DNA of 64,000 nucleotides from a virus. Taxonomy: Duplodnaviria; Heunggongvirae; Uroviricota; Caudoviricetes. How positions within the stretch are numbered: the first letter of the stretch is position 1; the number at the start of each line of letters is the position of its first letter. The position numbers and the translations under genes are program-made. This document shows, piece by piece, positions 15,154 through 57,023 of the stretch. The notes under the pieces were generated by a model that saw only the letters and a program-made list of their open reading frames with translations, was not told where the DNA came from and ran no database searches. The DNA lies in the IMG/VR virus record IMGVR_UViG_3300037852_000238; one strand, written 5' to 3'.

Positions 15154-15605
15154 ACTGGAATTGGCCGCTTATCATAAGCTTCGGGGCGGTGATACTTCTG
15201 CAGATCGTCTCGTATTGGTACGACCGGCGACAGTACTCGGTACTTAACAAGCAATTTCAAGAGATGGCGGATCGGGTCAGCATCATTAACGCGGGTTATA
15301 CGCCAATGTTCACGGCGTTACTCAAGGTCGTCGTCCCGGAATTGACGCATTTTCACACGCCCGAAGCCGATGATCTCCTGGCGCGGATCGCCACTCTCAA
15401 AGACGACGAGATGGATCGACTTGAAGTGCTCATGCGCGAGCGGGAGAGCGTGGTGGACCCCCAAATTTCTCCGAAAGAACGCGCGACCGCGCGAGCGCTG
15501 CCGTGGATTGCCCGGCGTGCCCGCGAGGAGGCCCAGGTCGGCCCGGACGTTCGCGTCGTCGTGCAGATGGTCTCGACTTCGTTGGAGGTGCAGGAGCCCA
15601 AGTGA
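15150..15605 (+). CDS. membrane-anchored hypothetical protein (151 aa)
   Basis: N-terminal TM helix; ATGA-coupled to preceding gene. Confidence 0.4.
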   Translation: MNWNWPLIISFGAVILLQIVSYWYDRRQYSVLNKQFQEMADRVSIINAGYTPMFTALLKVVVPELTHFHTPEADDLLARIATLKDDEMDRLEVLMRERESVVDPQISPKERATARALPWIARRAREEAQVGPDVRVVVQMVSTSLEVQEPK

Positions 15606-16081
15606 ACCGCCCAGACTCCCGAAAGATAGTCCTCCCCAACTTCGCCAAGGTTGACGCGACGCTGTGGCGCGGCGGCCGGCCGGACGAGGCCGGCGCGCGC
15701 TGGCTGGTCGCCGAGGGCGTACGCACGGTCGTCAACCTGGAGTGGGAGCAGGAGGACGACGACGTGTTCGGTTACGCGCCCGCGGTTCGCTTCGTGCGGG
15801 TCAAAGATTTTGAGCCGCTGCCCTGGTTCGCGCCGTCGGTGTCGGATCATCACGCCCGGCGGTTTCTCGCCGTCGTGCGCTCCGGTTCTACGCCGGTCTA
15901 CGTCCACTGCCGCTCGGGCGAGAACCGCACCGGCGTCATGGTCGCGGCGTACCAGCTGATCGTGAAGGGCCTGCTGCTCGACGACGTGCTAGATGAGTTT
16001 GACCGCTTCCGCGGCTTCTGGGCGTGGGGTGATTTTCGCTACATCCGCTCGCTCGACGCGCGCCGGTTGAGCTTCCGGTGA
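15602..16081 (+). CDS. protein-tyrosine / dual-specificity phosphatase family protein (CX5R active site)
   Basis: GTG start overlapping previous stop; VHCRSGENRTG = HCx5R P-loop; upstream DxxN-like acid region. Confidence 0.7.
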   Translation: MNRPDSRKIVLPNFAKVDATLWRGGRPDEAGARWLVAEGVRTVVNLEWEQEDDDVFGYAPAVRFVRVKDFEPLPWFAPSVSDHHARRFLAVVRSGSTPVYVHCRSGENRTGVMVAAYQLIVKGLLLDDVLDEFDRFRGFWAWGDFRYIRSLDARRLSFR

Positions 16082-19707: not shown

Positions 19708-19733
19708 CTACACGCACCTTAGAGCGCTTCCAA

Positions 19734-19765
19734 CGCCCCGCCTCGCGCGGGGCGTTTTGCGTTTT
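19734..19765 (+). terminator. rho-independent terminator (8-bp GC stem, TTTTGCGTTTT tail) at convergence point
   Basis: CGCCCCGC-ctcgc-GCGGGGCG followed by T-run; lies between convergent genes. Confidence 0.7.
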
Positions 19766-20796
19766 CACTTCCACCCGTTAGGCTGATCCACGACCACCGT
19801 CGAGCCGGCGCGGTCGACCGCGACCGGCACCTCGATCGGGTCACCCAGCGCCACCTTGACGGCCGCGCGGCGCTCGGGCTCGACGACGAGCAGAAAGAAT
19901 CCCCCGCCGCCCGCACCGAGCAGTTTTCCACCGACCGCGCCCGCGGCCCGCGCGCGCCCGTACAGCGCGTCTACGGCGGCGGGCGCGACGCCGGGGGCCA
20001 GCCCGCGCTTAACGCGCCAGGCGGCGTCCAGGAGCGCCCCCAGCTCCGTCACGGGGCATCGGGGGTCGGTCAGGATCGCCTCGGCGTCGTTAACCATCGC
20101 CGCGAGTGCGGCCAGCCCACGCGCATTCTCGTTGATGCGCGCGATCTTCACCGCTTCGACCTCGGCCGCGACCCGCGTCGTGCCGGTGTAGACCAGCATC
20201 AGGTGGGCTAGTATTTCAACCTTACGGCTTGGAGAAATCTCTAACGGATGGATTCCGATAATGTTCGGCTTAAAGCCGGCCTCGATCTCCTCCGGCGTCG
20301 CTCCGAACTGTAACCGATTGAAACCTCCGAACGCCGCGAAGACCTGATCCTGCGACCCCACTGCCTCGCCGATCAGCGCCTGCTCCACGTGGATCGCGTC
20401 GCTCGCCAGCTCCTCCGGCGAGAGCCGGCGGCCGTCCAGCGTCGCCGCGGCGTTGAGCAGCCCCACGGTGAAGGCCGACGACGAGCCCATCCCACTCATG
20501 TGCGGGATGTCGCCGGCGTGGTGGAGCTCGTAGCCCTGGCCGGGCGCGCCGACCGCGCGCAGCACCTCGCGGGCGGCGGGGTGCGCGATCTCGTCGACCT
20601 CGCGCACCAGCTCGGTGCGCGACCACACGATGCGGTGGCGGTGAGCGAAGTAGGGTGGCAGGCGGCGCAGCGAGATCCAGCAGTATTGCGCGAGTGCGAA
20701 GCCGAGCGTGGCGCCGCCGTGGGCGCGGTAGTGCGCGGGCAGGTCGGAGCCGCCGCCGGCGAGGCTGATGCGGTGCGGTGTTCGGGTGATGATCAA
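19765..20796 (-). CDS. hddA: GHMP-family sugar kinase, D-glycero-alpha-D-manno-heptose 7-phosphate kinase (HddA)-like
   Basis: GHMP motif PHMSGMGSSSAF; Gly-rich C-terminal GGKLLGAGGGGF; size 343 aa. Confidence 0.75.
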   Translation of the reverse strand: MIITRTPHRISLAGGGSDLPAHYRAHGGATLGFALAQYCWISLRRLPPYFAHRHRIVWSRTELVREVDEIAHPAAREVLRAVGAPGQGYELHHAGDIPHMSGMGSSSAFTVGLLNAAATLDGRRLSPEELASDAIHVEQALIGEAVGSQDQVFAAFGGFNRLQFGATPEEIEAGFKPNIIGIHPLEISPSRKVEILAHLMLVYTGTTRVAAEVEAVKIARINENARGLAALAAMVNDAEAILTDPRCPVTELGALLDAAWRVKRGLAPGVAPAAVDALYGRARAAGAVGGKLLGAGGGGFFLLVVEPERRAAVKVALGDPIEVPVAVDRAGSTVVVDQPNGWK

Positions 20797-20801
20797 GGTA
20801 T

Positions 20802-21023
20802 TTAACGCTGATAAATTGGGTTCTTTTTCTCAAACTCTTTACGGCGAGCAACGCAAATGCGAACTCGCTCAACGATCCTTAAATCAAAAGGCGCCACGCT
20901 CGTTGGATCAGAGTTAAATTCGGCGTTGATTAAATCGAGTAAGATGTGGGCTTCTTCGTCATTTTTCCAGCTATCTTCCATTTCTCGCTGCCGCTTGCTA
21001 CTCATTCTTGGAGTTTTATCCAT
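20802..21023 (-). CDS. small low-GC hypothetical ORF inserted between hddA-like and hddC-like genes
   Basis: AT-rich island (approx 20800-21020) inside GC-rich operon; 73-aa ORF. Confidence 0.3.
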   Translation of the reverse strand: MDKTPRMSSKRQREMEDSWKNDEEAHILLDLINAEFNSDPTSVAPFDLRIVERVRICVARRKEFEKKNPIYQR

Positions 21024-21028
21024 CTAAG

Positions 21029-21616
21029 TTATGGTGCCTCCCGCTCCGCCCGCGCCAGACCCTCCGGCGAACCGATATCCCAGAACGCGCGGCAGCAGCC
21101 CACCGGCAGCGCGCCCCATGTGGGCTGCCGCCGGTCCAGCCACGCGCGCGGTAGCAGGTGCACGCCAGACTCGACGTGGGCCAACCCTACCGGGGCCACC
21201 GCGACCAACCCGACGGGCACGCGCTGGGAGGTGTAGACCGTCAGCAGGGTCCGCCAGTCCAGATCCACCAGCGTGTCGCCGTTGACGACGGCGACGGGGT
21301 CGGAGAGTTTGGAGAATGCCTCTGCGATGCTGTTCAGCGCGTGTGGGATCGAGCGCGGCTCGGGCTCCTCCCAGTTTACCGTCGGCATCGAGGTTATCAT
21401 CCTCGGAAGCGCGCGCCGGATTTGCTCCGCCCCATAGCCCAACGCCAGCACTGCGCACTGGAACCCGGCCGCGGCGAGCTGGCGCAGTAGTGCCTCGGCG
21501 AACGGCCGGTCGCGGAAGGGCGCGAGGAACTTCGGCACGCCGGGTGGTAATGCCGGCGCTAGGCGCGTGCCTTGGCCGCCGCAGAGGATTATCACATCTA
21601 GGTCAGCGGGGGTCAC
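21029..21616 (-). CDS. sugar-1-phosphate nucleotidyltransferase (heptose-1-P guanylyltransferase HddC-like)
   Basis: N-terminal IILCGGQGTRLAP…PKFL signature of NTP-transferase family; GTG start overlapping next gene. Confidence 0.7.
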   Translation of the reverse strand: MTPADLDVIILCGGQGTRLAPALPPGVPKFLAPFRDRPFAEALLRQLAAAGFQCAVLALGYGAEQIRRALPRMITSMPTVNWEEPEPRSIPHALNSIAEAFSKLSDPVAVVNGDTLVDLDWRTLLTVYTSQRVPVGLVAVAPVGLAHVESGVHLLPRAWLDRRQPTWGALPVGCCRAFWDIGSPEGLARAEREAP

Positions 21617-21903
21617 GGCTTGACCAGCTTGACGACCTTCTCCCGCTCGGGTTCGTCGACCCAGTTCAGGAAGGCTCGGACCCCGGCGTAATCGTCGAAG
21701 ATCTTGGCCGGCGCGCCCTCGTCGCCGGGCTTCAGCATCAGTAACCGGAGATCCACGACGTAGCAGCCGAACTTGTTCGGTTCGCCCGTGCTCGGGTTCA
21801 GCGCGCGGACCAGGTAAAGGTGGCGGGTCTGGCGCCGCTCGAAGCGCGCGAGCTGCCAGTAGTCGTCCGGCATATCGAGCATCAGGTAGAGGCCGATCAT
21901 CGG
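21613..21903 (-). CDS. hypothetical protein (about 96 aa; internal ATG start chosen)
   Basis: C-terminal portion of listed ORF is protein-like; the N-terminal extension is not. Confidence 0.35.
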   Translation of the reverse strand, partial: PMIGLYLMLDMPDDYWQLARFERRQTRHLYLVRALNPSTGEPNKFGCYVVDLRLLMLKPGDEGAPAKIFDDYAGVRAFLNWVDEPEREKVVKLVKP

Positions 21904-23406
21904 AGCAAGTCCCTGTCTAAAGTGTAGGAAAGCATCTTCTCCACCTCCGCCACGGCGCCGGGGCCGAACCGCGCGCGGAGCATCGCGCGGTACTCGGGGG
22001 AGGAGAAGTAAGTGACGTGGGCGGCGTCGCGGAAGCGGAGGATGTCGGCGGCCGAGAGGTGTGCGTTGCGCAGCGGCACCGTGTGCCGGTTGTGCTGCGA
22101 GTACGCCGCCCAGCTCGGTGGCAGATCCTCCGGCCGCTCGCGCGCGACCCGGTCGTAGAGCGGCGAGCCGGGGTACGGCATGGCGCAGTAGAAGTTGGCC
22201 CACTCCGCGTTGAGGCGCTGGGCCAGCGCAAGCGTCTCGCGCATCGACGCTTCGGTGTCGTCGGGCAGCCCGAAGATGTAATTGCCGATAACGTTAATGT
22301 CGGCGCGGCGGATCGCCAACACGGTCGTCTCAATCCCGAGGTTGCCGTCGCCGCGTAAGGCTTTGTTGGTTCCAGCGCGGACCTCGCTCGACCCCGACTC
22401 GATCCCGAGCGCCAGCCAACGGATGCCGGCCGCGCGCATCAGCGGCAGATCCTCCTCGCGCACGGTATCGGTGCGGGCGTAGGCCCAGACGTTGATGTCG
22501 TTACCAATACCAGAATCGACTAGCCATTGGCAGACCGCACGATAATGATTTTTTGATAAAACAAAAAGTTCGTCTACGATCTTGAATGTCCGTACACCAC
22601 GTTCGCGGTAGAGCCAGACCATCTCCTCGACGACCGCCGCGGGCGAGCGGCGGCGGTAGCGGTTCGTGTGCTGAAAGACGTTGATCATGCAGAAGTCGCA
22701 CGTGTAACTGCATCCGAGTGACGTATACACCGCCGCGTAGGGCGACGACCGCGGCCAACCGTCCAGGCACTGCCAGTTGTGGGCGCGGTAACGCGATGGC
22801 TCGGGCAGTAGGTCCCACGTGCGGCCGTGGAGGTCGCGGTCAAGGTCAAGTGGTGGAGCGAGGGGGTTGCGAACGATCTCGGCGCTCCGCCAAACCAGAC
22901 CGGGGATCTCGCCGAGTTTGAAGATGTAGCTACCTCTTTCGGGGTCATCTTTCGAGGGTGACTCCCCTAACCGTAAAAGGGCATCTAGGGTTATCGGTCC
23001 TTCACCGTCGATGACAAAATCACATGGCTCCTCGCGAAGTGTTTGTTCGGGTAGGGCGGAAGGGTGGTTGCCGAGAAGGATTACTTTCGAATGGTCCTTA
23101 TGATTTAAACCTATTTCCCAAGCCACCGCCCGCGCACCCGGTAGAGCCTGCGTGCTGGCGCTGGGCTGGTGGCCGTGGACACAGATCGCAACGACCCGCG
23201 GCCGTAGGAGCGCGACCTTGGCAGCGATCTCCGCCGCGCTCAACCCTTCCACCTCCTGGTCGACGATTGTGACCGACCACCCGCGGTCGCGCAGGTAGCC
23301 GGCGATCAACCGGGGCCATAGTGGTGGCTCGCGCGCGACGAGCTCACCGCCGAGCGGGCCGTATATGCCGTGGACGCCTCCGGGATGTATCAGAACGATA
23401 TCAGTC
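21897..23406 (-). CDS. B12-binding domain radical SAM protein (class B, likely C-methyltransferase)
   Basis: N-terminal B12-binding-like Rossmann segment; CSYTCDFC = CX3CX2C radical SAM motif; GTG start VTDIVLIHPGG. Confidence 0.75.
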
Positions 23407-24190
23407 ACACGAACATCTCCTTCTCCACCGCTGCGCAGATCGTGTGGCCGATCGCCAGGTGGATCTCCTGGATGACCGGCGTCTCGTCGCTCGGGGCGCG
23501 GATCAGGACGGCGACATGCTCGGAGTGCTCCCGTAGGACGTGGCCGCCGTCCGCGCCGGTCATCGCAATCACCTTCATCCCGCGCGCGAAGGCGGTGTCG
23601 ATCGACCGCAAGACGTTCGGGCTCCTGCCCGACGTGCTTATCACCACTAGAACGTCGCCGGAGTTTCCCAGGCCCGCTATCCACCGGGCGAAGGTCCAGT
23701 CGTACCCGTAGTCGTTCCCGAGTGCGGTCAAGGTCGCCGGCTCGGTCAGCGCGATCGCCGCCAGCGGCGCCCGATCCCGCGCGTAGCGCTCGACGAGCTC
23801 GGCCGCCAGGTGCGCCGCCAGTGCCGCGGAGCCGCCGTTGCCGCAGAGCAAGACCTTTCCGCCAGCGCGGAGAGCGGTGGTGATTAGCTGGGCCGCGTTG
23901 TCTACGGAAGTGAGGTAATCGACGTCGACTGCGAGGCGATTGAATGCGGTCATAAAGTCGTTAATATGCTTATTCATGCCTTCAGGTACCTCACGCTTTA
24001 GTGCATCAATTATAGCGCCCGCAGCTTTACCGACCTCGGTTGAGCGGTCTAAATTGGCGGTCATCCGTAATACGAACTCGGCGTTGCCGCCGAGCAATAT
24101 TCGGCGTATCTGTTCCTTCTTGCTCATCCGTTGAAAGTCTTCGTACATCGCTTCTTCAAGGCTCGGAAACGGCATCACACATTCCCCCAC
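23405..24190 (-). CDS. gmhA: SIS-domain phosphoheptose isomerase (GmhA-like); possible shorter start at MNKHI
   Basis: GGKVLLCGNGGSAA…ISTSGRS…GMKVIAMTG SIS motifs; AT-rich N-terminal extension. Confidence 0.7.
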   Translation of the reverse strand: MGECVMPFPSLEEAMYEDFQRMSKKEQIRRILLGGNAEFVLRMTANLDRSTEVGKAAGAIIDALKREVPEGMNKHINDFMTAFNRLAVDVDYLTSVDNAAQLITTALRAGGKVLLCGNGGSAALAAHLAAELVERYARDRAPLAAIALTEPATLTALGNDYGYDWTFARWIAGLGNSGDVLVVISTSGRSPNVLRSIDTAFARGMKVIAMTGADGGHVLREHSEHVAVLIRAPSDETPVIQEIHLAIGHTICAAVEKEMFV

Positions 24191-25125
24191 TGGTGCCGTG
24201 GAAACGCCGCGTAGAGCTTGAGCAACTCATCAATCCCCTCCACCAGCCCGCGTCGCGCGCGGAAGCCGGCCGCGGCCAGCCGCTTGTTGGAGACGAGATA
24301 ATCGCGGGCATCAGGATCGCGCCCCTCGACCTCGAACCAACGGAACCCCGGCACCCGCGTGCGGATCGCCTCGCACAGCCCGCGTTTGGTGATGTTGGCT
24401 TCGTCGTTGCCGAGGTTGAAGATGCGCTCCGCGCTCGGAAGACCTTTCCAGATTACGCGCGGTGGATCGATCGCCCATAAGATTGCGTCCGCCACGTCCC
24501 TGACGTGCACGAAGTTCCGCCGGGCCGCACCGTCATACAGCGCTACCGCCTCGCCGCGCGCGGCCTTCAGCACGAAGTCGTTGACCAGTAAGTCGGTTCT
24601 CATCCGCGGACTAGCACCCATGACGGTCGCCAACCGAAACACCACCGCGTTCGGGTGCTCCAACACCACGGCCTCGCCCTCGCACTTGGTCCGCGCATAT
24701 AGCGACAGCGGCCGCTGCGGCGCGTCCTCGGTCAGCGGCTCGGCGCCGCCGGTGCCGTAGGCGGAGTTGGTGTTGGGGTAGATTAGGAGCTGGCGCGGCG
24801 AGAGCAGGCCGACGAGCGTGCGCACGGCGTCCCGGTTGGTTGAGACGGCAGCAGCGGAGTCAGCGTCACACGCCGGTGCGCCGACGATCGCGGCTAGATT
24901 CACCACCGCGTCCGCACGGGCCACCAGCGGGCGCAGTGTCATGGCGTCCCGCATGTCGCCTCGCACCAGTTCGAACCGCGGGTCGGCGCAGCACGCGGCC
25001 AGCGCGAGAGCCTGGTTGTAGCGGAGGTTGTCGACGATGGTGACGCTATATCCTCTGTCGAGCATCATTCGGGCCATGACGCTCCCCAGATACCCCGCGC
25101 CGCCGAGCAGAAGGACGTGATCCAT
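24175..25125 (-). CDS. NAD-dependent epimerase/dehydratase (SDR) family protein
   Basis: LLLGGAGYLGS Rossmann motif; 316 aa. Confidence 0.8.
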   Translation of the reverse strand: MDHVLLLGGAGYLGSVMARMMLDRGYSVTIVDNLRYNQALALAACCADPRFELVRGDMRDAMTLRPLVARADAVVNLAAIVGAPACDADSAAAVSTNRDAVRTLVGLLSPRQLLIYPNTNSAYGTGGAEPLTEDAPQRPLSLYARTKCEGEAVVLEHPNAVVFRLATVMGASPRMRTDLLVNDFVLKAARGEAVALYDGAARRNFVHVRDVADAILWAIDPPRVIWKGLPSAERIFNLGNDEANITKRGLCEAIRTRVPGFRWFEVEGRDPDARDYLVSNKRLAAAGFRARRGLVEGIDELLKLYAAFPRHQWGNV

Positions 25126-25413
25126 TTATTCCCCCGTGACTCCGAACGAGCCCTTCGACGGTGGCCGCGTCGGTAACGCCGCCTCCCGCCCCGTCAACGG
25201 CCTTCGCGGCCGGCGGAACAACCGCCGCTTCGCCCGGTACGCGGCCGGTAGGCAGTCCCAGCAGCGCCACTCGCCCCGGTACGCGAACAGCCGCCAGCCG
25301 TCACGGTGCGTCCGGCCGCAGGCGCAGGTGGGGGTCACCGGGCGAGGTACCACAATAGTTGACCGAAAGCGAATCCCGCAAACGGGGCCACCAAAGGTAG
25401 CGCCCGTAACCAT
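25126..25413 (-). CDS. small Cys-rich hypothetical protein
   Basis: Abuts SDR gene; CxC…CxxC. Confidence 0.3.
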   Translation of the reverse strand: MVTGATFGGPVCGIRFRSTIVVPRPVTPTCACGRTHRDGWRLFAYRGEWRCWDCLPAAYRAKRRLFRRPRRPLTGREAALPTRPPSKGSFGVTGE

Positions 25414-25446
25414 AAAGGTCGCCGGGTGAGTCGTTTCAGTTCAACC

Positions 25447-26589
25447 TCATAATACCTCCCTCATAACAGCCACCGCCTTCTCGATAAGTTCCGGTATCGG
25501 CCACGGCGCGCAACCCAGGAACATGCCTCGCTCATGCACGAGATCGGCCCGCGGCGTCTTCTGGTCACGCCATGGCACGCCGTATGGATGCTTTAGGAAC
25601 GATCCGCCCGTCGGCGGCCGGCTGTCGATCCCGGCCATGGCCAGCGCTCGCGCCAACGGCGCACGGCGCGTGGGGTCGAGGACCTCAAATGCGAGGCCGA
25701 ACGGTGACGGGGTTCCGCGTTGCTGCTGGTGCTGTATCGGCGCTTCGAGCGTGCAGGCAATGAAATGAGATATGTTTCGGCGCCTGGCAAAAATCATCTC
25801 GTCGAGCCGTTTTAATTGTTTGCGGGCGACCGCGCAATGCGCCTCGACCGGTCTTACATTGTAGCCGAATAGACTGAACGAATAACGCCCCTCGAATTCC
25901 TCCCGCCCCCAGCCCTCGTTCCCGTGGTTGCGCAGCAGGCGGCAGAGCCGCGCCAGCTCGTCGTCGTCGGTGAGTATCCAGCCGAGTTCGACGGCACTAA
26001 TTTGGTGGGAGTAGAAGCCCGAGCCGGTCGAGAGGTCGCCGAACGTGCCGGTCAGTCGGCCTTCCGACGTCCGCCCGCCGATTGATTCGCAATTGTCCTC
26101 AAGGAGTAGCTGCTTTTGCCAGCGGGAGGTCGCGCAACGCCAATCACTTAGGTGGCCAGGACTTCCCAAGATCGACGCGATGACGGTTAGCGGCTCGCTC
26201 CTCGTAAGCGGCGCGTTCCAGGTATCATCCACGTCGATGATCGTTGGCCAATAACGGTGCTGTAGGGCCGGGCTATAGGTTGTTGACCATGCGACTCCGG
26301 GCGCGACGAAGCGTCCCTCGTAAGGACCTTCTTCCTCGTTGATGTATCCTTCATCGACATGCCAATGCCTGATCGCCGCCACCGCCACCAGGTTCGCGCT
26401 CGACCCCGAGTTTACGGCGATAGCGTGCCGCCGGCCATGGTAGGCCGCGATCTCTTCCTCGAACGCCTCGGTCTCAGGTCCCATGGTCAGCCGGCCAGAG
26501 CGCAGCACGCGCTCGTACGCGGCCCATTCGGTGGAGCCGTCATACGGTTTCCACGACGAGAATGCAGCGGGAAAGAGCCAATCTTTCAT
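25447..26589 (-). CDS. DegT/DnrJ/EryC1/StrS-family PLP/PMP sugar aminotransferase or 3-dehydratase
   Basis: Fold-type I sugar aminotransferase blocks (SGSSANLVAV, EDNCESIGG, LRNHG); residue at canonical Lys position unclear (FYSHQIS). Confidence 0.75.
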   Translation of the reverse strand: MKDWLFPAAFSSWKPYDGSTEWAAYERVLRSGRLTMGPETEAFEEEIAAYHGRRHAIAVNSGSSANLVAVAAIRHWHVDEGYINEEEGPYEGRFVAPGVAWSTTYSPALQHRYWPTIIDVDDTWNAPLTRSEPLTVIASILGSPGHLSDWRCATSRWQKQLLLEDNCESIGGRTSEGRLTGTFGDLSTGSGFYSHQISAVELGWILTDDDELARLCRLLRNHGNEGWGREEFEGRYSFSLFGYNVRPVEAHCAVARKQLKRLDEMIFARRRNISHFIACTLEAPIQHQQQRGTPSPFGLAFEVLDPTRRAPLARALAMAGIDSRPPTGGSFLKHPYGVPWRDQKTPRADLVHERGMFLGCAPWPIPELIEKAVAVMREVL

Positions 26590-26894
26590 TATTTTGGCTC
26601 GAAGAACTTAGCGTCGGGGCCGCAAGCACCTTCTGGCCTCCGAAGATCTCTAGGATCTTGGTAGGTGAAGTACGTCCTGCCACTAATTATGCTTTCGGTT
26701 TTGCGGAGGAGCTCTGTCCGGTGGCAGCGAAACCCGATGAATTCGCCACTGATATTCTCGAAGGCGTTGCAGTCCTGGCAACCCTTCGTCGTTTTCGCGG
26801 GAGGTGGGCGGTTATCTTTGACCGCGGTTCTTTGTATAATACTGGGCTCCGTGACTCGACGCTTTAGGAATTTAAACATCGTATCTCTCCGCAT
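26589..26894 (-). CDS. low-GC hypothetical protein (101 aa)
   Basis: AT-rich island 26590-26880. Confidence 0.3.
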   Translation of the reverse strand: MRRDTMFKFLKRRVTEPSIIQRTAVKDNRPPPAKTTKGCQDCNAFENISGEFIGFRCHRTELLRKTESIISGRTYFTYQDPRDLRRPEGACGPDAKFFEPK

Positions 26895-27399
26895 GTTCGA
26901 TCAGCATCGACGACCCCCCGTGCGCCAGCGCCGCGCGGTAAGCCGGCACTACGGCCGCGGCGTCCGTTAGGTCAAACACCAGCACAGTGCGCAGCATCTG
27001 CTGCAGGTGCCACACGAAATTCGGCCCGGTCAGGTGCTGCGGGCCGGGGTCAAGCGGCCGGTCGTGAGCGACCGCGACCCGGATCAGGACGCGCGGCCGG
27101 TAGCCCATCAGCGGCAGCGCGTCGAGGTGGTTCACGAGCTGGTCCATGCAGCGCATCAGGAAGGACGCGCGTGGGTAGCACGACACCACTGGCCGCCCCG
27201 AGGCCAACGAAAGGCCGATGGCCATTCCGAGTTGAAGCTCCTCGCATACAGGCATCTCAACAAGCGCGGCGTCCGGCAGATGATCCAGCGTCCCGCGCAG
27301 CGCCGTGCCGCCGGCCAGGACCGACTGCCCGATTATCGGCGCACCGGCCGCGGCGCACAGCGACATCGCCTCGCGGAGGGCGGCGGCATAGGTCATCGG
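26872..27399 (-). CDS. thiamine-diphosphate enzyme beta-like subunit (transketolase C-terminal / E1 beta-like)
   Basis: Internal ATG start MTYAAALREA; transketolase C-terminal-like blocks. Confidence 0.65.
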   Translation of the reverse strand, partial: PMTYAAALREAMSLCAAAGAPIIGQSVLAGGTALRGTLDHLPDAALVEMPVCEELQLGMAIGLSLASGRPVVSCYPRASFLMRCMDQLVNHLDALPLMGYRPRVLIRVAVAHDRPLDPGPQHLTGPNFVWHLQQMLRTVLVFDLTDAAAVVPAYRAALAHGGSSMLIEHAERYDV

Positions 27400-27590
27400 A
27401 ACGCGCCGAGAAGATTGGCTATGTGAAGTCCGGCGCCGACAGTAACTAACACGCCGAGAACAATTGCGAGTAGGAGCCACCACCCGCCGCGCTCGACCGC
27501 CATAAGTATCGGTGAAACGCAGAACACCGCGAGGATGGCGAGACGCGATACGGACCAAGCGGCGTTTCTAATCATCGAAACCATCCAACG
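27393..27590 (-). CDS. small two-TM membrane protein
   Basis: Hydrophobic segments LAILAVFCVSPILMAV and WLLLAIVLGVLVTVGAGL. Confidence 0.3.
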   Translation of the reverse strand, partial: RWMVSMIRNAAWSVSRLAILAVFCVSPILMAVERGGWWLLLAIVLGVLVTVGAGLHIANLLGAFR

Positions 27591-27708
27591 ACCATGTCGA
27601 TAAACTGGATCACGTCCATCGTTAACCAGACGATAACGACGCGGCCGGCCCAGGCAAGCTCGCGCGGCGTCAGCGACTGACCGGAGAGGATGCGGTGGAG
27701 GGTGTCCA

Positions 27709-28344
27709 TCAGAAATCGATCCAGGTTCCTGCACCGCTATGAGGCCATTCGAGCTTGTAGGTATAAGCTACCGTACGTGCTTCGTCGCTTTCGAACCACA
27801 TGCCATTTGACGTCATTTGCCACCAGTTATTACGATCTGGATCTGATGCCCATTGCCGACCCCAGACGTGTTCTGTGTCTGTCTTCACTGACAGCCCATT
27901 GTCCTCGACCACGAACGTGATTGGCAGATTATGCCCGCAGGCGTACTCCCGACACTCGTAGAATAAGCCTGACCTTGCTGCACTATCTCCGACGAAGCAG
28001 TGCACATGCCGCACCAGCCCGCTGGCCGCCAGCCCCACCGCAATCGGGCACGCCCCGGCGACGATCGCCGACGCCAGGAAGCGATGTTCCGGGAAGCACA
28101 GCGCGATCGAGCGCCCGGCGCGGATCGCGGCCATGACCTCGGCGGGGGGACAACCGGCGAGCAAACAATGATAATGACTCCGCCAGGTTGAGACCACCCA
28201 ATCCCCCGGCTGGAAGCGCTCGGCGAAGTAGCGCAGCAGCGGCGCCTCGTTCCCCCCGCTGAGGTGCACCGGTGCACGGATCTCCCCGCGGTTGTACATC
28301 GCCGCAACCTCGGCCTCGAACTCGATTAGCTCCTCGGCGGTCAC
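27709..28344 (-). CDS. thiamine-diphosphate enzyme alpha-like subunit (dehydrogenase E1 alpha / transketolase N-terminal-like)
   Basis: E1-alpha-like blocks (GGNEAP, HCFVGDSAARSG…NNG-like segment). Confidence 0.65.
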   Translation of the reverse strand: MTAEELIEFEAEVAAMYNRGEIRAPVHLSGGNEAPLLRYFAERFQPGDWVVSTWRSHYHCLLAGCPPAEVMAAIRAGRSIALCFPEHRFLASAIVAGACPIAVGLAASGLVRHVHCFVGDSAARSGLFYECREYACGHNLPITFVVEDNGLSVKTDTEHVWGRQWASDPDRNNWWQMTSNGMWFESDEARTVAYTYKLEWPHSGAGTWIDF

Positions 28345-29621: not shown

Positions 29622-29857
29622 TGTCTCAAATCCTTCGGGTTCTCGCCGTCGAACCCCGGCCCGACGTAGGCGCACTCGGTAGAGCCGCCGTCGCCGTGGG
29701 CGAGCCAGGTCCAGCCGCGCGCGGCGCACTCGTAGCGGCCGAGGTCGGGCTCGACGCCGTCTGCGAGGCGACTGACGTAGCAGCGCCGCCCGCCGAGGAC
29801 GACGAACCGGCGCTCCCGCCCGGCGCGCTGGAAGTCCTCGTAGGTCACCTGAGCCAC
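29618..29857 (-). CDS. hypothetical protein (79 aa)
   Basis: GTG start VAQVTYEDF; rest of listed ORF is GC-shadow. Confidence 0.35.
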   Translation of the reverse strand: MAQVTYEDFQRAGRERRFVVLGGRRCYVSRLADGVEPDLGRYECAARGWTWLAHGDGGSTECAYVGPGFDGENPKDLRQ

Positions 29858-30246
29858 TCCCCGAGGACGAAGAACGCCGAGACCCAGTCGGGGCGTTGGC
29901 CCTCTCGGCTCCGGTCGTAGAGGACCAGGCCGCGAATGTCCCAATGATCGGTGCCGCAGTCCTGTTCCATCGACGCCGCTTTCTCTAGAGAGTTGCCGGT
30001 CGTTAGCACGTCGTCGGCGATTAGGACGATCGTCGCGTCGGTCCGCTCGTACCTCCGCAGAGCCTCCGCGAACCGAGCCCCGGCGCCCGATCCGGCGGCG
30101 ATAACGTGCCTGAACTTGATGCGCGCAGCGGCGACCGCGGCGAACGCCGCCAGGTCCGCGTCGGTGTACGCGTCGCACTCGATCTTGAACGGCAGCCGAA
30201 CGCCCGAGTGCGAGGTGAATGGACGCGGGTCGATGAGGCCGGTCAC
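29845..30246 (-). CDS. phosphoribosyltransferase (type I PRTase) domain protein (133 aa)
   Basis: TIVLIADDVLTTGNSL PRPP-binding motif; GTG start. Confidence 0.6.
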   Translation of the reverse strand: MTGLIDPRPFTSHSGVRLPFKIECDAYTDADLAAFAAVAAARIKFRHVIAAGSGAGARFAEALRRYERTDATIVLIADDVLTTGNSLEKAASMEQDCGTDHWDIRGLVLYDRSREGQRPDWVSAFFVLGEWLR

Positions 30247-30889: not shown

Positions 30890-31107
30890 GATCGCCGCTC
30901 CGGGTTAATGTCCGCCGGCTCTTCCTCCGGCACCGGCACGCCGCCGACCAGCCCGCCGCCTGCGTCGTCGATCGCCGCGCCAAGCTCGGCCGGCCACAGC
31001 GCCACCAGATAGGCGTAGCGCCAGGCCGGCGCCGCGGCGCGCTCGGCGTGGTTGACCGCCGCGCCGAAGCCGACGAGCAGGTAGAGGGCGAGGAGGAGGC
31101 GGATCAC
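30886..31107 (-). CDS. small membrane protein
   Basis: N-terminal TM MIRLLLALYLLVGFGAAV. Confidence 0.35.
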   Translation of the reverse strand: MIRLLLALYLLVGFGAAVNHAERAAAPAWRYAYLVALWPAELGAAIDDAGGGLVGGVPVPEEEPADINPERRS

Positions 31108-31391
31108 TCAACAGCCTCCAGTGCCGCAGCCACCATATCCGGTGTGATGTCCTCCGCGCGCGTGACGTTGTAAAACGTCACGCTATCGCCGATGCCGAAG
31201 ATCTTGTCAAAGAGTGGCTCTTCGAGCCCGAGCCAGTCCGGCCATCTTCCGTCGTCGTCTTCCGGCCCGATGGCAGCTAGCTCGCAGAAGGCGCATCTAC
31301 TCACCAGTCTAAAGTTCCAGGGCAGTCGCCCCGGCGCTGGGTTGCGTAGCGCCGCGGCCAGCCGCGCGCGGTTTTCGGCGGGGGTTGTCAT
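31104..31391 (-). CDS. paralog 1 of small TPxMVAxAL-family protein
   Basis: Shares ALRNP…W.F…C…IFGI…FYNV…TPDMVAAAL blocks with genes at 34213 and 60371. Confidence 0.5.
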   Translation of the reverse strand: MTTPAENRARLAAALRNPAPGRLPWNFRLVSRCAFCELAAIGPEDDDGRWPDWLGLEEPLFDKIFGIGDSVTFYNVTRAEDITPDMVAAALEAVE

Positions 31392-34212: not shown

Positions 34213-34527
34213 TCATCGCCCGATCGCCCCCAATGCGTCGGCGACCATAGCCGGAGTTACCTCGCGGCGATGTCCCACGTTGTATAGCTGCCTGTAGGGA
34301 GCTTCGATGTCGTCCAAGAAGTATATTCCAAAGATTCCACTGAATTGCCAGCGGGTTAACCCGAGATCTTCACGAGCATCGAATCCTAAACCCCTAGCGT
34401 CGTTAAGAGCGCAGCGGCGGCCGCTGGCGAAGTCCCATGCCACGCGATCGGTCGCCGGGTTGCGCAGCGCCTGGGCGAGCAAGGAGCGATTGAGCGCGGC
34501 GTCGTTGTGCTTGGGGTCGAAGGGCAT
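34213..34527 (-). CDS. paralog 2 of small TPxMVAxAL-family protein
   Basis: ALRNPATDRVAWDF…IFGIYF…LYNV…VTPAMVADAL. Confidence 0.5.
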   Translation of the reverse strand: MPFDPKHNDAALNRSLLAQALRNPATDRVAWDFASGRRCALNDARGLGFDAREDLGLTRWQFSGIFGIYFLDDIEAPYRQLYNVGHRREVTPAMVADALGAIGR

Positions 34528-38566: not shown

Positions 38567-38959
38567 TTACCCCTCCTTCGCGTTCCACGGTTTGAACGCC
38601 AGTAGCCGTTCTGGTGTAAGTGCGGCCCAGTCGCCGTCGAAGGTCAGCGCGCGATCGTCGATCGTCAGGAAGGCTGGGGGCTTTTCGTGGGCGAAATCGA
38701 AGTCGTCTACCGCGATCGGCGTCGGGTTCTCGTATTCGTTACGGATCTGGTCGCCCAGCCACGTCTTCATCTCGGCGACGCCGTTCAGCTCCTTCGATCG
38801 CGATGAGTAGATTACCAGGTGGAAGCGCTCCTTGGCGCGGATCGCCCACTCGAAGAAGCCGGGAACGACGGGGTCATAGATCGAACCGTCCTGCCAGCCA
38901 CGGGAATAGGCGTGGATACAGCCATCAAAATCGAGATATAAGATTGGTTTTGCCATCAA
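38567..38959 (-). CDS. HAD-superfamily phosphatase-like protein (DxDG motif)
   Basis: LYLDFDGCIH motif I of HAD hydrolases; 130 aa. Confidence 0.55.
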   Translation of the reverse strand: MMAKPILYLDFDGCIHAYSRGWQDGSIYDPVVPGFFEWAIRAKERFHLVIYSSRSKELNGVAEMKTWLGDQIRNEYENPTPIAVDDFDFAHEKPPAFLTIDDRALTFDGDWAALTPERLLAFKPWNAKEG

Positions 38960-47830: not shown

Positions 47831-48237
47831 TTGAAATTCCCCTTCGCTTTTTCGATCAGAACTTCGCCGTCATCAACGTAGCCCGTAAGCCGTTCGGCGA
47901 GGTCGTCCCAGCTTTCGCCTGGCCGCTGGCCGTAGATCCGCTTGCCTTGTATCTGCGCCCACAAGATTTCGCGGGCGGTGGAGAAGCCGACGTAGCCATC
48001 CCCTAGTACCAGGATCGCGTCGCTGTTTTGTATTCTCTGAAAATATAGGAGATCCGCAAGTATTTTGTCGAGCCCGTCGTCAGACCAGTTCTCGTTGGGC
48101 TGGCGGTGCTGCGGCAGGACGGCGAGCGAGAAGCACAGGATGCCGCGGCGGGATAACTCCCTCTGGGCGTCGATGAAGGATTGTTCGAATTTGGTCGATC
48201 CGCAGAGGGTTATTATCATTGCCGGCACACCCGACAT
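47827..48237 (-). CDS. nucleoside 2-deoxyribosyltransferase-like (Rossmann) protein candidate
   Basis: MIITLCGSTKF…AILVLGDG pattern; weak. Confidence 0.35.
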   Translation of the reverse strand: MSGVPAMIITLCGSTKFEQSFIDAQRELSRRGILCFSLAVLPQHRQPNENWSDDGLDKILADLLYFQRIQNSDAILVLGDGYVGFSTAREILWAQIQGKRIYGQRPGESWDDLAERLTGYVDDGEVLIEKAKGNFK

Positions 48238-48932
48238 TGCATTTCGGAAATAGGGTCACGCGTATCGCGCGGCACCCAGCCAGTTTCAAATTTGGCGCGC
48301 AGGTCTTTGAGAGATGTCGGTTGCGTGTCGCGGCCTGGCGAGCGGAATGTGTATCCCGTTAGCGCCTCAAGTTCCTCGCCCCATAGGTAAGCGGTGAGAT
48401 TGTATTTCCACAACTCCCACCATTCGATCAGGCGCTGGAAAAAGCACAGCATACAGTCGGTGCGCTTCGGGATGATTATGCCGTGTTCATCGTTGAACCG
48501 GATAACGTCGGATTTGCACATCCCCGCGTCGCGCAGCGGAAATACCATCTCGACGTTCGGGACTTGCTGGTAGTCGCCGCCCTCCCGTTCCTCTTCGTCA
48601 GCACGTAGGCCAACGTAGAAGCGCGCCGGTGAGTGTTGAGAGAGGTAATCGGCGAACGGCTCGATCTTGAGGACGCGCGTACACCAGCGCTGCCGCCAGT
48701 TGGGCAGGGCTTTCCATTTCTTTATCAATCCGTCAAAACCGCCAGGGTACATGATCGGGATGATCGGCCCGAGCCTCGTGGCCAACTCCCGCATGTGGGC
48801 GAACCACTCAGGCGGCTCATTGCCTGTCGGCGTACAGATCCGCGTGAACTCAATTTTTGGATCCTGTTCGGCCAGCATAACGGCCATCGCCACACTGTCT
48901 TTACCGCCCGAAATAGCGACGATGTGGTTCAC
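48216..48932 (-). CDS. phosphoadenosine-phosphosulfate reductase-family (PP-loop ATP pyrophosphatase) protein
   Basis: VAISGGKDS PP-loop; GTG start overlapping upstream stop. Confidence 0.75.
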   Translation of the reverse strand: MNHIVAISGGKDSVAMAVMLAEQDPKIEFTRICTPTGNEPPEWFAHMRELATRLGPIIPIMYPGGFDGLIKKWKALPNWRQRWCTRVLKIEPFADYLSQHSPARFYVGLRADEEEREGGDYQQVPNVEMVFPLRDAGMCKSDVIRFNDEHGIIIPKRTDCMLCFFQRLIEWWELWKYNLTAYLWGEELEALTGYTFRSPGRDTQPTSLKDLRAKFETGWVPRDTRDPISEMQCRVCRQ

Positions 48933-49783
48933 GCCGTAGGCCTCCACCGCCGCCCCGTACCCTCGCCGGTACGGATGCGCTCGTATTTGTCCCATTCGCA
49001 AAGGTTGTGCTCGGTCTCTAGGAGGTTGGGAAGACCAGACGCTTGCTGGATTTCCCGGAGCGCGTCGCGGGCTTTCGGCGCCAGTCGCATATCCTCTTTG
49101 GTTGGCTGAAAACCGAGGGCTCCATATATCTTGTTGCGCCACTCGCTGCCGGTGCGGTCGCTCCAGTGGTCGCTCTTTACGTATTTTTCCTGAAGGCGAC
49201 TGATCCCTCGAATAGCACCCAGGCCGAGCATGCACCGTTCTTGCTCGTCTTCATAAGGGCCGTAGAGCCAGCGGAGATCCTGCGCGGTTTGGTAGGCAAC
49301 GAAGGCGCCGACGCCGAGCCAGCCGCGGATGGATTGGCAAGTCAACTCGGCTCTCTCTCGCCTTTGGAAGTCGTTCCGACGCGCCGCTTTGTTAGCTCTT
49401 ACGATCACGTCGGCTATACCCGGAAGGTAGAACAGGCCGCCTTTGACCGAGATCTTGTAGGCCAGCGAGTTGATCGCGGGCTCGGGCAACGCCTTCAACA
49501 CCTCGTCGCGCGTTTCGGGCCAGCCCGCAGCGGCCAGCGCTTCGAGTGACTCGACCCGATTATAGATGCGGAAGCCCAGGGCGGCGCTCAGACGGTATTG
49601 CTCCGGCAGGCCCAGGATTATCCTCTTAGCCTCCCGCGACGTACGGTCATCGTCTCGAATCACACAGCAGAACTTGTGCTTCTGTAATATCGGGTCGGTG
49701 GACCAGGGGACAGGCTCGCCGGCCTGACGGCGGTCGAAGATGGCTTGGCGCTCGCGGACGTAGGAGACGAATTGCTGGATCAC
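48929..49783 (-). CDS. paralog A of a phage protein family tentatively related to alpha-glutamyl/putrescinyl thymine pyrophosphorylase (aGPT-Pplase)
   Basis: Shares N-terminal block F..Y..ER.AIF.RR.AG.P.PW(S/T).D.IL.K..FC.V.R.DDR with gene 51078..51944; assignment from memory of thymidine-hypermodification clusters. Confidence 0.45.
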   Translation of the reverse strand: MIQQFVSYVRERQAIFDRRQAGEPVPWSTDPILQKHKFCCVIRDDDRTSREAKRIILGLPEQYRLSAALGFRIYNRVESLEALAAAGWPETRDEVLKALPEPAINSLAYKISVKGGLFYLPGIADVIVRANKAARRNDFQRRERAELTCQSIRGWLGVGAFVAYQTAQDLRWLYGPYEDEQERCMLGLGAIRGISRLQEKYVKSDHWSDRTGSEWRNKIYGALGFQPTKEDMRLAPKARDALREIQQASGLPNLLETEHNLCEWDKYERIRTGEGTGRRWRPTA

Positions 49784-50061
49784 AACGTTTGAACCTCCTC
49801 GATAATCTTACCGCAAGAGGAACAGGCGGTTCCTTTGAAACAATCGGCAAAACTTCCTGGACCGGCACGCTTGTCTACTCGATTATATTGGAAAGTTTGG
49901 CCGTGATCACAAAAGAACGGATGTTTGATTCGATAATCGGGCGTCTCTTTTGCAAAGTCCCAATCTTCCGGATGCCAGTTCTCTTTATCAAAAGAGCGGA
50001 CCGCGGGCACTGTAGCGTAGACCTCGTGGAAAAGGCCGTTTCGGGGAAGCCTCCATCTCAT
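49780..50061 (-). CDS. small Cys-rich (zinc-binding) protein
   Basis: 93 aa; CDH…C…CSSC; coupled on both sides. Confidence 0.45.
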   Translation of the reverse strand: MRWRLPRNGLFHEVYATVPAVRSFDKENWHPEDWDFAKETPDYRIKHPFFCDHGQTFQYNRVDKRAGPGSFADCFKGTACSSCGKIIEEVQTL

Positions 50062-51077: not shown

Positions 51078-51944
51078 CTAAACCTCCCTAGGACGGTATA
51101 GGGCGCGGGGGCGGCCTTCGCCGTTTTGAACACGCAAGTACTTTTCCACCTCACACATCACGTTCCCAGAATCCAGCCAGTCAAAATTTACTTGGCTCTC
51201 TTTAATTAGTAAAGGGTAAACCTCTCGTAACTCCTCTAAAGCTTGCTTTTGACTTAACGGTCGTTTGACTGGACGCTCGTGAAGCCGATTTAATCCACGG
51301 AGCGTCCCTGGACCCGAGGCGAACCAGGTGTTACGGTCTGGTGCGTCGGCGAGTATCGGAGTAAACGCCATGTCGATAATCGCTTGAAAAGCCATAAACG
51401 GACCCCAACCGCAATAAAGCATCAAGGCGGCATGTGCCTTTTGTAATGATTCAGTGAAACTTAACGAAAGAAACTGGCGATCCCTCCACAATCGGCCGAG
51501 GACGATTTCCGCGATATAGCGCGCCTTAGACCAAACGAACCACGGTACACGTTTGTCGCTTTCCGCCCTAATCATGTAGGCACCAGTGTGCCATTTCTCG
51601 CCGCGCTTTGATATCGCCTCGATTACCTCCGTCACAGCCTCCGGCCGAAAGCGCCGAACCGTTGGCCAAGCGCGCGCGTCGATCAACGCTTGGAGCGTCG
51701 TCGGCCAGTTGATCTGCCGCGCCGCGCAACACATCCACCAGAGGTGCGGGTGGTCAGCATAGGGCTCGCGGATGTTGGCCTTAATCCACCGCGTCACGCG
51801 GTCGTCCTCACGGCGAACATTGCAGAAAGAGTACTTCCGCAAGATTAGGTCGTCGGTCCATGGCCAGAGGTCGTGATTTACCTCTTTGCTGATACGGATG
51901 GCTTCGCGCTCCTTGATCCAGTAGATGAATGGATCGAGGTTCAC
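51078..51944 (-). CDS. paralog B of the aGPT-Pplase-like family
   Basis: Same N-terminal block as 48929..49783. Confidence 0.45.
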   Translation of the reverse strand: MNLDPFIYWIKEREAIRISKEVNHDLWPWTDDLILRKYSFCNVRREDDRVTRWIKANIREPYADHPHLWWMCCAARQINWPTTLQALIDARAWPTVRRFRPEAVTEVIEAISKRGEKWHTGAYMIRAESDKRVPWFVWSKARYIAEIVLGRLWRDRQFLSLSFTESLQKAHAALMLYCGWGPFMAFQAIIDMAFTPILADAPDRNTWFASGPGTLRGLNRLHERPVKRPLSQKQALEELREVYPLLIKESQVNFDWLDSGNVMCEVEKYLRVQNGEGRPRALYRPREV

Positions 51945-57020: not shown

Positions 57021-57023
57021 CCC

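Follow-up and report, generated by a model that had tools for sequence, protein, structure and literature searches.

A conserved phage gene cassette with a probable role in the synthesis of a tailored GDP-heptose

Gene content of the cassette

The 64,000-nucleotide stretch of viral DNA analyzed here (the window; IMG/VR record IMGVR_UViG_3300037852_000238) carries a cassette of genes for predicted sugar-nucleotide enzymes at positions 19765–28344. The seven enzyme types that an initial annotation had named there are all found by Pfam and NCBIfam, and all are encoded on the minus strand: a GHMP sugar kinase, a sugar-1-phosphate nucleotidyltransferase, a phosphoheptose isomerase (GmhA) with a SIS domain, a short-chain dehydrogenase/reductase (SDR), a DegT-fold enzyme, a radical S-adenosylmethionine (SAM) enzyme with a B12-binding domain, and a split thiamine diphosphate (ThDP) enzyme resembling E1 alpha and E1 beta subunits. 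Domain calls come from these two libraries, and finer assignments come from comparison with solved PDB structures. The eight enzyme genes are intact and keep their catalytic motifs: the nucleotidyltransferase has GGQGTRL, the kinase SGMGSSSA, the radical SAM enzyme CSYTCDFC, and the SDR YxxxK, and the alpha and beta ThDP subunits have GDS...EDN and PVCEE, respectively. The best overall explanation, to which we assign a probability of about 60%, is that the region is the conserved phage version of a widespread bacterial cassette for a tailored guanosine diphosphate (GDP)-heptose.

The SIS protein (23405–24175; SIS_2, 94.7 bits) is predicted to be a true GmhA, that is, a sedoheptulose-7-phosphate isomerase. 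It matches the GmhA of B. pseudomallei (5lu7) at 153 bits, and the active-site residues His, Glu, Gln, and His align with those of a solved GmhA chain; the NCBIfam model PRK13936 for phosphoheptose isomerase scores 184 bits against a cut-off of 276, marking a divergent member. The open reading frame (ORF) at 23405–24190 encodes 261 residues with homology limited to residues ~86–260, and the AT-rich 5′ portion of ~200 nucleotides may be non-coding. The kinase (19765–20796; GHMP_kinases_N and GHMP_kinases_C) is HddA-like, putatively of the heptose-7-phosphate 1-kinase type. HddA is its best NCBIfam model (99 bits, cut-off 600), followed by a fucokinase model at 85 bits, and its best solved relatives are the heptose kinases 3k85, 4n3o, and 4usk at ~91 bits. 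The nucleotidyltransferase (21029–21616, 195 residues; NTP_transferase/NTP_transf_3) is an HddC-like putative sugar-1-phosphate (guanylyl)transferase. Its best NCBIfam model is HddC (44 bits, cut-off 300), it scores about as well on mannose-1-phosphate guanylyltransferase, and its best solved relatives are human GMPPB and the Y. pseudotuberculosis structures 5xhw/6jq8 (~36 bits), the latter labelled "6-deoxy-D-mannoheptose pathway protein". The nucleotide-binding loop GGQGTRL requires a GTG start at 21616, which overlaps the upstream stop by 4 nucleotides; the public gene call in the JGI contig L006 has 169 residues and begins past this loop.

The SDR (24175–25125; Epimerase, 123 bits) has one close solved relative, 6vo6/6vo8, which aligns over 309 residues with 251 bits (E 1.4e-73), the next best match reaching 83 bits. 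The catalytic motif YxxxK is kept and aligned with that of 6vo6, a structure whose PDB file gives a generic name only and which we take to be Cj1427 of C. jejuni, a GDP-heptose C4-dehydrogenase. The phage SDR is accordingly described as a putative Cj1427-like enzyme, which might share the alpha-ketoglutarate ping-pong mechanism of Cj1427. The adjacent DegT homolog (25447–26589; DegT, 143 bits) aligns best with ColD/WbdK (2gms, 155 bits, E 2e-44) and scores 86 bits with the E1/RfbH-type structure 3bcx. At the alignment position of ColD His188, which the mutant chains H188N and H188K confirm, the phage protein likewise has His, within "GFYSHQ", and His replaces the Schiff-base Lys in 86 of 94 DegT homologs from such cassettes. 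By this alignment, the protein is predicted to be a 3-dehydratase dependent on pyridoxamine 5′-phosphate (PMP), not an aminotransferase. The initial annotation had left both functions open and listed an amino group among the possible modifications; an amino sugar is not supported here, as the cassette has no Lys-type aminotransferase. No gene for an E3-like reductase, the partner of the [2Fe-2S] dehydrase E1/RfbH, is found in the cassette by Pfam.

The ThDP pair is unusually short. The E1 alpha-like subunit (27709–28344, 211 residues; E1_dh, 42.7 bits; TIGR03182, 84 bits) comprises only the diphosphate-binding domain, in which GDS and EDN, separated by 27 residues, align with the motif of pyruvate dehydrogenase and 2-oxo acid dehydrogenase E1 alpha. 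The pattern GD[GMS]...E[ND]N is kept in 76 E1 alpha homologs, whose median length is 203 residues in viral copies against 321 in bacterial ones. The E1 beta-like subunit (26872–27396, 174 residues; Transket_pyr at 21 bits, under the gathering score) comprises only the pyrimidine-binding domain; its ORF spans 26872–27558 with the true start at ~27396, and a transketolase-C domain is absent. The activating Glu lies in PVCEE, and the Glu of P-V-x-E is invariant in 16 viral homologs. The short E1 beta adjoins the short E1 alpha in the viral loci that have it, and the viral locus L007 lacks both, whereas E1 beta of the bacterial cassettes is full length (~330–370 residues).

E1-type pairs termed alphaKADH2 are reported to be specialized for pyruvate-derived two-carbon branches on deoxy-keto sugars (PMC12247030, PMC9306805) and add such branches in aldgamycin, kosinostatin, and kibdelomycin biosynthesis, KbDH-alpha/beta being among the pairs (PMC12247030). 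The proposal in the initial annotation that the split E1 pair adds a two-carbon branch agrees with this literature (PMC12247030). As in alphaKADH2 and AviB1-AviB2, both subunits are present, with the ThDP motif in alpha and the activating Glu in beta; however, the phage alpha subunit has about two-thirds and the beta subunit about half of the usual length, and the short pair occurs in viruses and Gram-negative glycan loci, whereas alphaKADH2 is known from actinomycete antibiotic clusters. A further likeness to both YerE and the alphaKADH2 pairs is that the ThDP enzyme stands beside a 3-dehydratase giving a 3-deoxy-4-keto sugar; YerE, of the yersiniose pathway, acts on CDP-3,6-dideoxy-4-keto-glucose, where CDP stands for cytidine diphosphate (PMC9306805). 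If the reading is right, the phage pair would be a minimal two-subunit ThDP carboligase of ~385 residues in total, possibly useful as a biocatalyst.

The radical SAM enzyme is called by JGI at 21897–23309 (470 residues; B12-binding, 54 bits; Radical_SAM, 51 bits), and the ORF scored by Pfam is 21897–23684. It combines the Cys triad CSYTCDFC (CX3CX2C) with an N-terminal B12-binding domain, the features of class B, and a structure model built on 27 homologs has a mean predicted confidence (pLDDT) of 90. BchE and HpnJ, two C–C bond-forming families, give the highest NCBIfam scores; the protein stays under the cut-off of every named class B family (BchE 128/481, HpnJ 107/578, AprD4 62/500, PhpK 65/600). 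Compared with the diol dehydratase AprD4, the C-methylases of the GenK/Fom3 type, and the carbocycle formers of the HpnJ/Cds type, no family cut-off is reached, and C-methylation, which the initial annotation had listed, is only one of three options. With a betaproteobacterial protein from a Burkholderiales metagenome-assembled genome (MAG) as the query, at least 7,994 of the 8,000 scored candidates match at E ≤ 1e-50; the family is very large and bears only a generic name. In two viral loci the radical SAM gene is interrupted by an HNH-type intein (Intein_splicing and HNH_3; L171, 10001–12475; L005, 10112–12418).

Phage context of the cassette

The window has a GC content of 64% and tightly packed genes. 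The plus strand at 1–19.7 kb carries the terminal part of a tail sheath gene and also encodes a tube protein, a 778-residue tape-measure protein with a lytic transglycosylase domain, baseplate proteins of the E217/Pam3 type, fibers, and a lysis/end block, with the tail genes situated at 1–12 kb. The minus strand at 19.7–64 kb carries early and replication functions, including a class II ribonucleotide reductase, a family A-like DNA polymerase, MT-A70, and a dCTP-deaminase-like protein, together with an enzyme kit for 5-hydroxymethyl-deoxyuridine (5-hmdU). The cassette forms the 3′ end of this leftward transcription unit. A strong terminator-like GC-rich hairpin with a T-run (19732–19756; 10 pairs, 8 of them G–C) splits the convergent late (plus) and cassette (minus) units.

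The same phage sequence is recovered in four independent assemblies, two from JGI (104,458 bp and 5.8 kb) and two from Logan (103,149 and 27,982 bp), and the 103,149-bp Logan contig carries head genes past one end of the window and small early genes past the opposite end. The context is a genuine phage, as the initial annotation had held, and neither a host lipopolysaccharide (LPS) locus nor a chimeric assembly. Among deposited phages, those of Rhodobacter come nearest in DNA polymerase sequence, and no identity exceeds 47%. The window belongs to a ~103-kb myovirus-like phage, probably with an alphaproteobacterial host.

Distribution in phages and bacteria

A megablast search with the region as the query gives zero matches among 50,697 phage records. 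In tblastn against the phage records, the sole match of the radical SAM protein is Streptomyces phage SF3 at 26% identity, and the DegT protein matches cyanophage genes only (25–28%); with no close match in either search, the cassette appears to be absent from cultured phages. Scanning viral contigs with the kinase sequence alone finds nothing. Scans seeded with the radical SAM protein yield 5 viral, 80 metagenomic, and 80 genomic loci. The viral cassettes fall into two types. Type A, with the activation genes, is found in the window, L007 (112 kb), L171 (68 kb), L172 (109 kb), and L173 (95.5 kb), in the order E1 alpha, E1 beta, ColD-like, SDR, GmhA where present, radical SAM, transferase, and kinase. 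The window, L007, and L171 have GmhA within the cassette, and L172 and L173 lack it; L007 is without the E1 pair, and in L172 the SDR and transferase genes are downstream of the kinase gene. Type-A cassettes are interspersed with small ORFs, GIY-YIG genes, and TnpB. Type B, with the five tailoring genes only, is found in L005, L174–L180, and L183 and more distantly in L001–L004.

The viral radical SAM proteins are 40–57% identical to that of the window, with the gene set in nearly the same order, and the short ThDP subunits of distant viral loci are 42–57% (E1 alpha) and 36–51% (E1 beta) identical to the window copies. In a neighbor-joining tree the viral radical SAM proteins, except those of L001–L004, group together with metagenomic contigs carrying the short E1 beta, which suggests that the cassette has long been resident in phages. 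By these comparisons, the cassette is judged ancient rather than recently assembled.

The low-GC spacers reported in the initial annotation are real: GC falls to 43% at 20797–21028 and to 53% at both 23978–24190 and 26590–26871, against 64% for the window. Their reading as a sign of recent mosaic assembly does not hold, since the same gene set is kept across viral contigs. The AT-rich junctions are the places where relatives hold GIY-YIG, TnpB, or lysozyme-like inserts; at the junction of the nucleotidyltransferase and kinase genes, L007 and L171 carry lysozyme-like or GIY-YIG genes. It is very improbable that the cassette is decaying or neutral host DNA without a phage function. The AT-rich spacers, the truncated ThDP subunits, and the lack of both a GmhB and a transferase would fit such decay; against it, all catalytic motifs are intact, the cassette genes have the GC content of the phage, distant viral loci have kept the short ThDP subunits, and the four assemblies contain the same sequence. 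In addition, inteins and homing endonucleases target the viral cassette genes without destroying them.

Cassette homologs are also common on bacterial chromosomes and plasmids, where they are accompanied by glycosyltransferases, so that any implication of a phage-only pathway is not supported. The hosts include Azospirillum, Magnetospirillum, many Rhodospirillales, Bryobacterales, Alteromonas, Marinomonas, and Betaproteobacteria, and our literature search found no paper describing the gene cluster. In Solidesulfovibrio magneticus plasmid pDMC1 (RefSeq), the order is GT2, GT2, radical SAM, NUDIX, kinase, E1 alpha, transketolase-C protein, GDP-L-fucose synthase, DegT, epimerase/dehydratase, nucleotidyltransferase, a carrier-dependent glycosyltransferase annotated for protein O-glycosylation, and a SIS protein. 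In Alteromonas hispanica, the cassette is situated inside a flagellin-glycosylation island with two PF13524 proteins, a GT2, homologs of PseB, PseC, and PseF, and a flagellin gene.

When the window proteins are compared by tblastn with the 97 loci longer than 12 kb, the kinase is found in 83, the SDR in 77, the DegT enzyme in 73, E1 alpha in 64, and the transferase in at least 56, and GmhA lies within 10 kb in 10. The low GmhA count, together with the fucokinase score of the kinase and the nearly equal score of the transferase on mannose-1-phosphate guanylyltransferase, would suit an enzyme set that activates a fucose-like sugar or a hexose, with GmhA as an unrelated passenger; the plasmids of Azospirillum lipoferum 4B and A. 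ramasamyi, which carry genes for the radical SAM enzyme and the kinase but none for ColD or E1, point the same way. However, GmhA sits within the cassette in three type-A phages, bacterial hosts can provide GmhA through the LPS core pathway, the kinase is closest, among solved structures, to three heptose kinases, and the SDR has 6vo6 as its sole close solved relative. A substrate other than heptose is therefore considered improbable.

Proposed pathway

A nucleotide-heptose pathway with tailoring enzymes, encoded by a genuine phage, is supported. GmhA would convert sedoheptulose-7-phosphate into D-glycero-D-manno-heptose-7-phosphate, and the HddA-like kinase would phosphorylate C1 to give heptose 1,7-bisphosphate. 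The 7-phosphate would be removed by a phosphatase outside the cassette, either the host GmhB or perhaps a HAD-like protein encoded at 38.6 kb, and the HddC-like transferase would turn the heptose-1-phosphate into GDP-heptose. The Cj1427-like SDR would then oxidize C4 to the 4-keto form, from which the ColD-type enzyme would remove the C3 hydroxyl, yielding GDP-3-deoxy-4-keto-heptose. In vitro, Cj1427 combined with the HS:5 C3-dehydratase forms this compound, with m/z 616.08, as reported by Raushel's group (PMC10680097). Up to this point the pathway draws on homology and published enzymology; the ThDP and radical SAM steps that would follow are less supported. A ThDP enzyme beside a 3-dehydratase is a hallmark of C4-branched sugars, and for this reason the minimal E1 alpha/beta is proposed to decarboxylate pyruvate and add the two-carbon unit to the keto sugar, leaving a quaternary C4 with an acetyl branch. 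The radical SAM enzyme might act last, by C-methylation, by an AprD4-like diol dehydration, or by C–C ring closure. The product would be a glycosyl donor. Its most likely use, which is a guess, would be on a protein, possibly a virion protein, and the transferase might lie outside the surveyed DNA, be unrecognizable, or be the host's own.

The activation logic (GmhA/HddA/GmhB/HddC) and the first two tailoring enzyme types are shared with the GDP-heptose pathways of Campylobacter jejuni. However, the Campylobacter pathways end with epimerases and C4-reductases and have no ThDP or radical SAM enzyme; they also contain GmhB and belong to a capsule locus that has transferases, whereas the phage cassette is without GmhB. 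With GDP-colitose synthesis (ColD/ColC) and with RfbH E1, the dehydrase for CDP-3,6-dideoxyhexoses, the cassette would share the PMP-dependent 3-deoxygenation of a 4-keto sugar nucleotide and the replacement of Lys by His; the predicted phage substrate is instead a 4-keto heptose, not necessarily 6-deoxy, and a final reductase of the ColC type is absent from the cassette. Both nucleotide-heptose tailoring pathways and phage-borne sugar pathways are known kinds, so the system is not categorically new. The initial annotation is mostly right in its interpretation, with three corrections: the sugar would be deoxy and not amino, the assembly is ancient and not recent, and bacterial counterparts exist with transferases.

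The HAD-like protein (38567–38956, minus strand, 129 residues) begins with an N-terminal DFDGC and scores 21 bits on HAD_SAK_2, under the gathering score. It matches phrog_1238, labelled "phosphoheptose isomerase", at 37 bits; a PDB sequence search gives nothing informative, and no conservation of the ORF beside the cassette is found in relatives. The protein may be the heptose-bisphosphate phosphatase, a role for which it is a weak candidate, or else a nucleotidase unrelated to the pathway.

A more specific proposal, which we regard as improbable, is that the cassette makes a caryose-type nonose (4,8-cyclo-3,9-dideoxy-nonose), either carbocyclic or branched at C4, which would be attached to the virion or the DNA by a novel transferase. 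The atoms may be accounted for as follows: seven heptose carbons and a pyruvate-derived two-carbon unit may give the nine carbons, ColD the 3-deoxy position, C4 oxidation with ThDP addition the quaternary C4 and the C9 methyl, and the BchE/HpnJ-like radical SAM enzyme the closing C7–C8 bond. The biosynthesis of caryose is reported as unknown, and radical SAM enzymes have been proposed as carbocycle formers for related sugars (PMC9092360). The best 120 matches of the Burkholderiales-MAG radical SAM query are all MAG or metagenome proteins and give no link to a caryose producer either way. A bradyrhizose-type product was also considered, in view of an 11-gene cluster that has been described (PMC4743980). 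Erwiniose, an octose, was considered as a C7-methylated heptose and was dropped, as it arises from a CDP-hexose and a C5 keto acid through a YerE-like enzyme (PMC9306805). If the GDP-heptose reading is true, a large family of sugar-tailoring clusters is defined, which probably make a novel heptose derivative of the deoxy, carbon-branched, or carbocyclic kind, and a candidate pathway is at hand for sugars such as caryose.

Acceptor and glycosyltransferases

The glycosyltransferase search accepted family matches at E < 1e-3 and covered ~82 of the 103 kb, where many ORFs belong to no family. As the initial annotation had noted for the vicinity of the cluster, no glycosyltransferase family is recognized in the 64-kb window or, on the Logan contig, in the 10 kb past each end. 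Other phages with the tailoring genes differ in this respect. In the type-B locus L180 the tailoring genes have the genes for the head protease and for the minor and major head proteins on one side and that for a neck protein on the other. The tailoring genes of L001–L004, L174, and L176–L179 are accompanied by glycosyltransferase-like genes of PF13524 (37.8 bits), and a second flanking family, which has no Pfam match, stands with those of L005, L174, L175, L177, and L180; relatives of both families also stand beside the cassette in several bacterial loci. The head-module placement in type B and the flagellin context in Alteromonas favor a general role of the sugar in glycosylating proteins, possibly those of the virion. 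For the window phage a protein glycan, possibly on the virion, is our leading guess and would be an extrapolation from these relatives.

Virion glycosylation in mycobacteriophages such as Che8 and Myrna offers a comparison: there, as in the type-B relatives, sugar genes are placed amid those for head and tail. The glycosylated mycobacteriophages encode transferases and use ordinary host sugar nucleotides, whereas the window phage encodes a sugar pathway but no recognized transferase.

Several observations weigh against a GDP-heptose pathway that serves protein glycosylation. On the enzyme side, all cassette proteins score well under the NCBIfam equivalog cut-offs, so the proteins are divergent and their substrate assignments follow best-match logic. 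No gene for a GmhB-type phosphatase occurs in 19.7–28.4 kb or in the cassettes of the relatives. The phage ThDP subunits are truncated relative to every characterized E1, and to our knowledge no activity has been described for E1 forms as short as these. The nearest structures of the radical SAM enzyme include both a diol dehydratase and methylases, and we consequently assign it no single reaction. On the acceptor side, besides the lack of a recognized glycosyltransferase, profile hidden Markov models of the flanking glycosyltransferase-like families of the other phages find no homolog in the window (best E ~1). The window cassette is placed at the end of the early/replication operon, outside the head module, and a flagellin gene lies within 10 kb of the cassette in just 3 of the 97 loci.

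Feeding of host glycosyltransferases that already use this sugar, so as to remodel the LPS, capsule, or flagellin glycan of the cell during infection and thereby block superinfection or keep progeny off debris, is a serious alternative, although we consider it rather unlikely. The absence of a phage glycosyltransferase is exactly what this explanation predicts, homologous cassettes are common with host glycosyltransferases in Rhodospirillales and other Proteobacteria, and the phage DNA polymerase is closest to those of alphaproteobacterial phages. Conversely, no flippase, ligase, Gtr-type, acetyltransferase, or lysogeny genes are seen in the surveyed 82 kb; in particular, the families of a seroconversion module (Gtr/Oac type, flippase, acetyltransferase), usually found in temperate phages, are missing from the window and the 10 kb past each end. 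The type-B phages carry their own glycosyltransferase-like genes in the head module, pointing to a phage acceptor, and the viral radical SAM proteins form an old group of their own, unlike recent host captures.

The phage DNA itself is an unlikely acceptor. In that case the sugar nucleotide would be the donor for hypermodification of 5-hmdU DNA through an unrecognized DNA glycosyltransferase or a pyrophosphorylase- or ADDT-type enzyme, and the attached moiety would be the sugar or an amine derived from it. The window holds a full 5-hmdU kit within 48216–57857 on the minus strand: a thymidylate synthase (TS)-like gene, two P-loop 5-hmdU DNA kinases, two HMUDK_hel proteins, and ADDT, to which are added a PAPS-reductase-like protein, a PALP-fold enzyme dependent on pyridoxal 5′-phosphate, and a 461-residue protein that has a CxxxCxxC-like motif and no Pfam match. 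DNA glycosyltransferases are often invisible to Pfam. In relatives, the cassette stands among replication genes, namely those for ribonucleotide reductase in L172 and for VapE and PIF1 in L173, and beside DNA methylases in L183. Furthermore, phages are known with sets of isomerase, kinase, HAD phosphatase, and nucleotidyltransferase for uridine diphosphate (UDP)-arabinose DNA glycosylation (PMC13326640). That pathway serves arabinosyl-hydroxy-cytosine DNA with a SIS isomerase and DNA glycosyltransferases (PMC13326640) and resembles the cassette in having a phage-encoded sugar-phosphate isomerase, 1-kinase, and nucleotidyltransferase for a rare sugar nucleotide. It differs in using a KdsD-type isomerase and a pentose, in including the phosphatase and transferases, and in lacking tailoring enzymes.

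Against a DNA acceptor, the tailoring genes of type-B phages lie in the head module, and the bacterial homologs belong to envelope or flagellin glycan loci and not to DNA-modification loci. The DegT enzyme is predicted to be a dehydratase, which would leave no sugar amine for an ADDT-type reaction. None of the best 120 ADDT homologs is on a contig of the size of the type-A relatives (112,028; 109,299; 95,558; and 67,968 bp), a weak test; with no ADDT homolog matched to them, the cassette seems to travel without the thymidine kit, and a link between the two is unlikely. As a separate observation, the layout of the kit recalls the pathways of the phage M6/ViI type, with ADDT as the amino acid:DNA transferase and the TS-like protein of the dUMP hydroxymethylase type. 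If the GDP-heptose reading is right, a phage lineage of ~100 kb has long kept a complete rare-sugar pathway, which implies an important use on the virion, the DNA, or the host surface.

Small ORFs and neighboring genes

Several small minus-strand ORFs accompany the cassette, and PHROGs assigns no function to those in or near it. A Cys-rich ORF of 95 residues (25126–25413), called as a gene in L006, has no Pfam or PHROG match and no homolog in the other viral loci. Another 95-residue protein (21613–21900), encoded 3′ of the radical SAM gene, has copies of 60–63% identity in type-A phages and belongs to no Pfam or PHROG family; its homologs follow the radical SAM gene directly in L007 and at a distance of one small ORF in L172. 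The 43%-GC spacer at the nucleotidyltransferase/kinase junction contains a 73-residue ORF (20802–21023) without a family match.

Next to the cassette of the 121-kb relative L183 (15245–21233) are genes for an RmlD-like reductase, a GLF flavoenzyme of the pyranose/furanose mutase type, and a second B12 radical SAM protein of 608 residues. In L180 (2410–3972) the head maturation protease carries a NUDIX domain as an N-terminal fusion, and NUDIX genes also occur within bacterial cassettes.

Between the tail fibers and the cassette, the plus strand at 15602–16081 encodes a dual-specificity/Tyr-phosphatase-like protein (PTP-NADK, 57 bits). On the minus strand at 29845–30246, a 133-residue ORF contains a motif of the phosphoribosyl-pyrophosphate-binding type, VLIADDVLTTGNS, and scores 20.6 bits on Pribosyltran, under the gathering score; an orotidine-monophosphate decarboxylase gene is present in L007. 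Three paralogous minus-strand proteins of ~100 residues (31104–31391, 34213–34527, and 60371–60703) have the common motifs "..ALRNP..W.F" and "VTPAMVAD". Homologs of these paralogs adjoin the cassette in L007 and L171, and a DUF6197 protein is located at a similar spot in L172. Past the right end of the window, the same phage (L186, 1–10000) encodes a 424-residue GcrA-domain protein and the nucleotide-modification-associated protein Nmad5 among many small ORFs.

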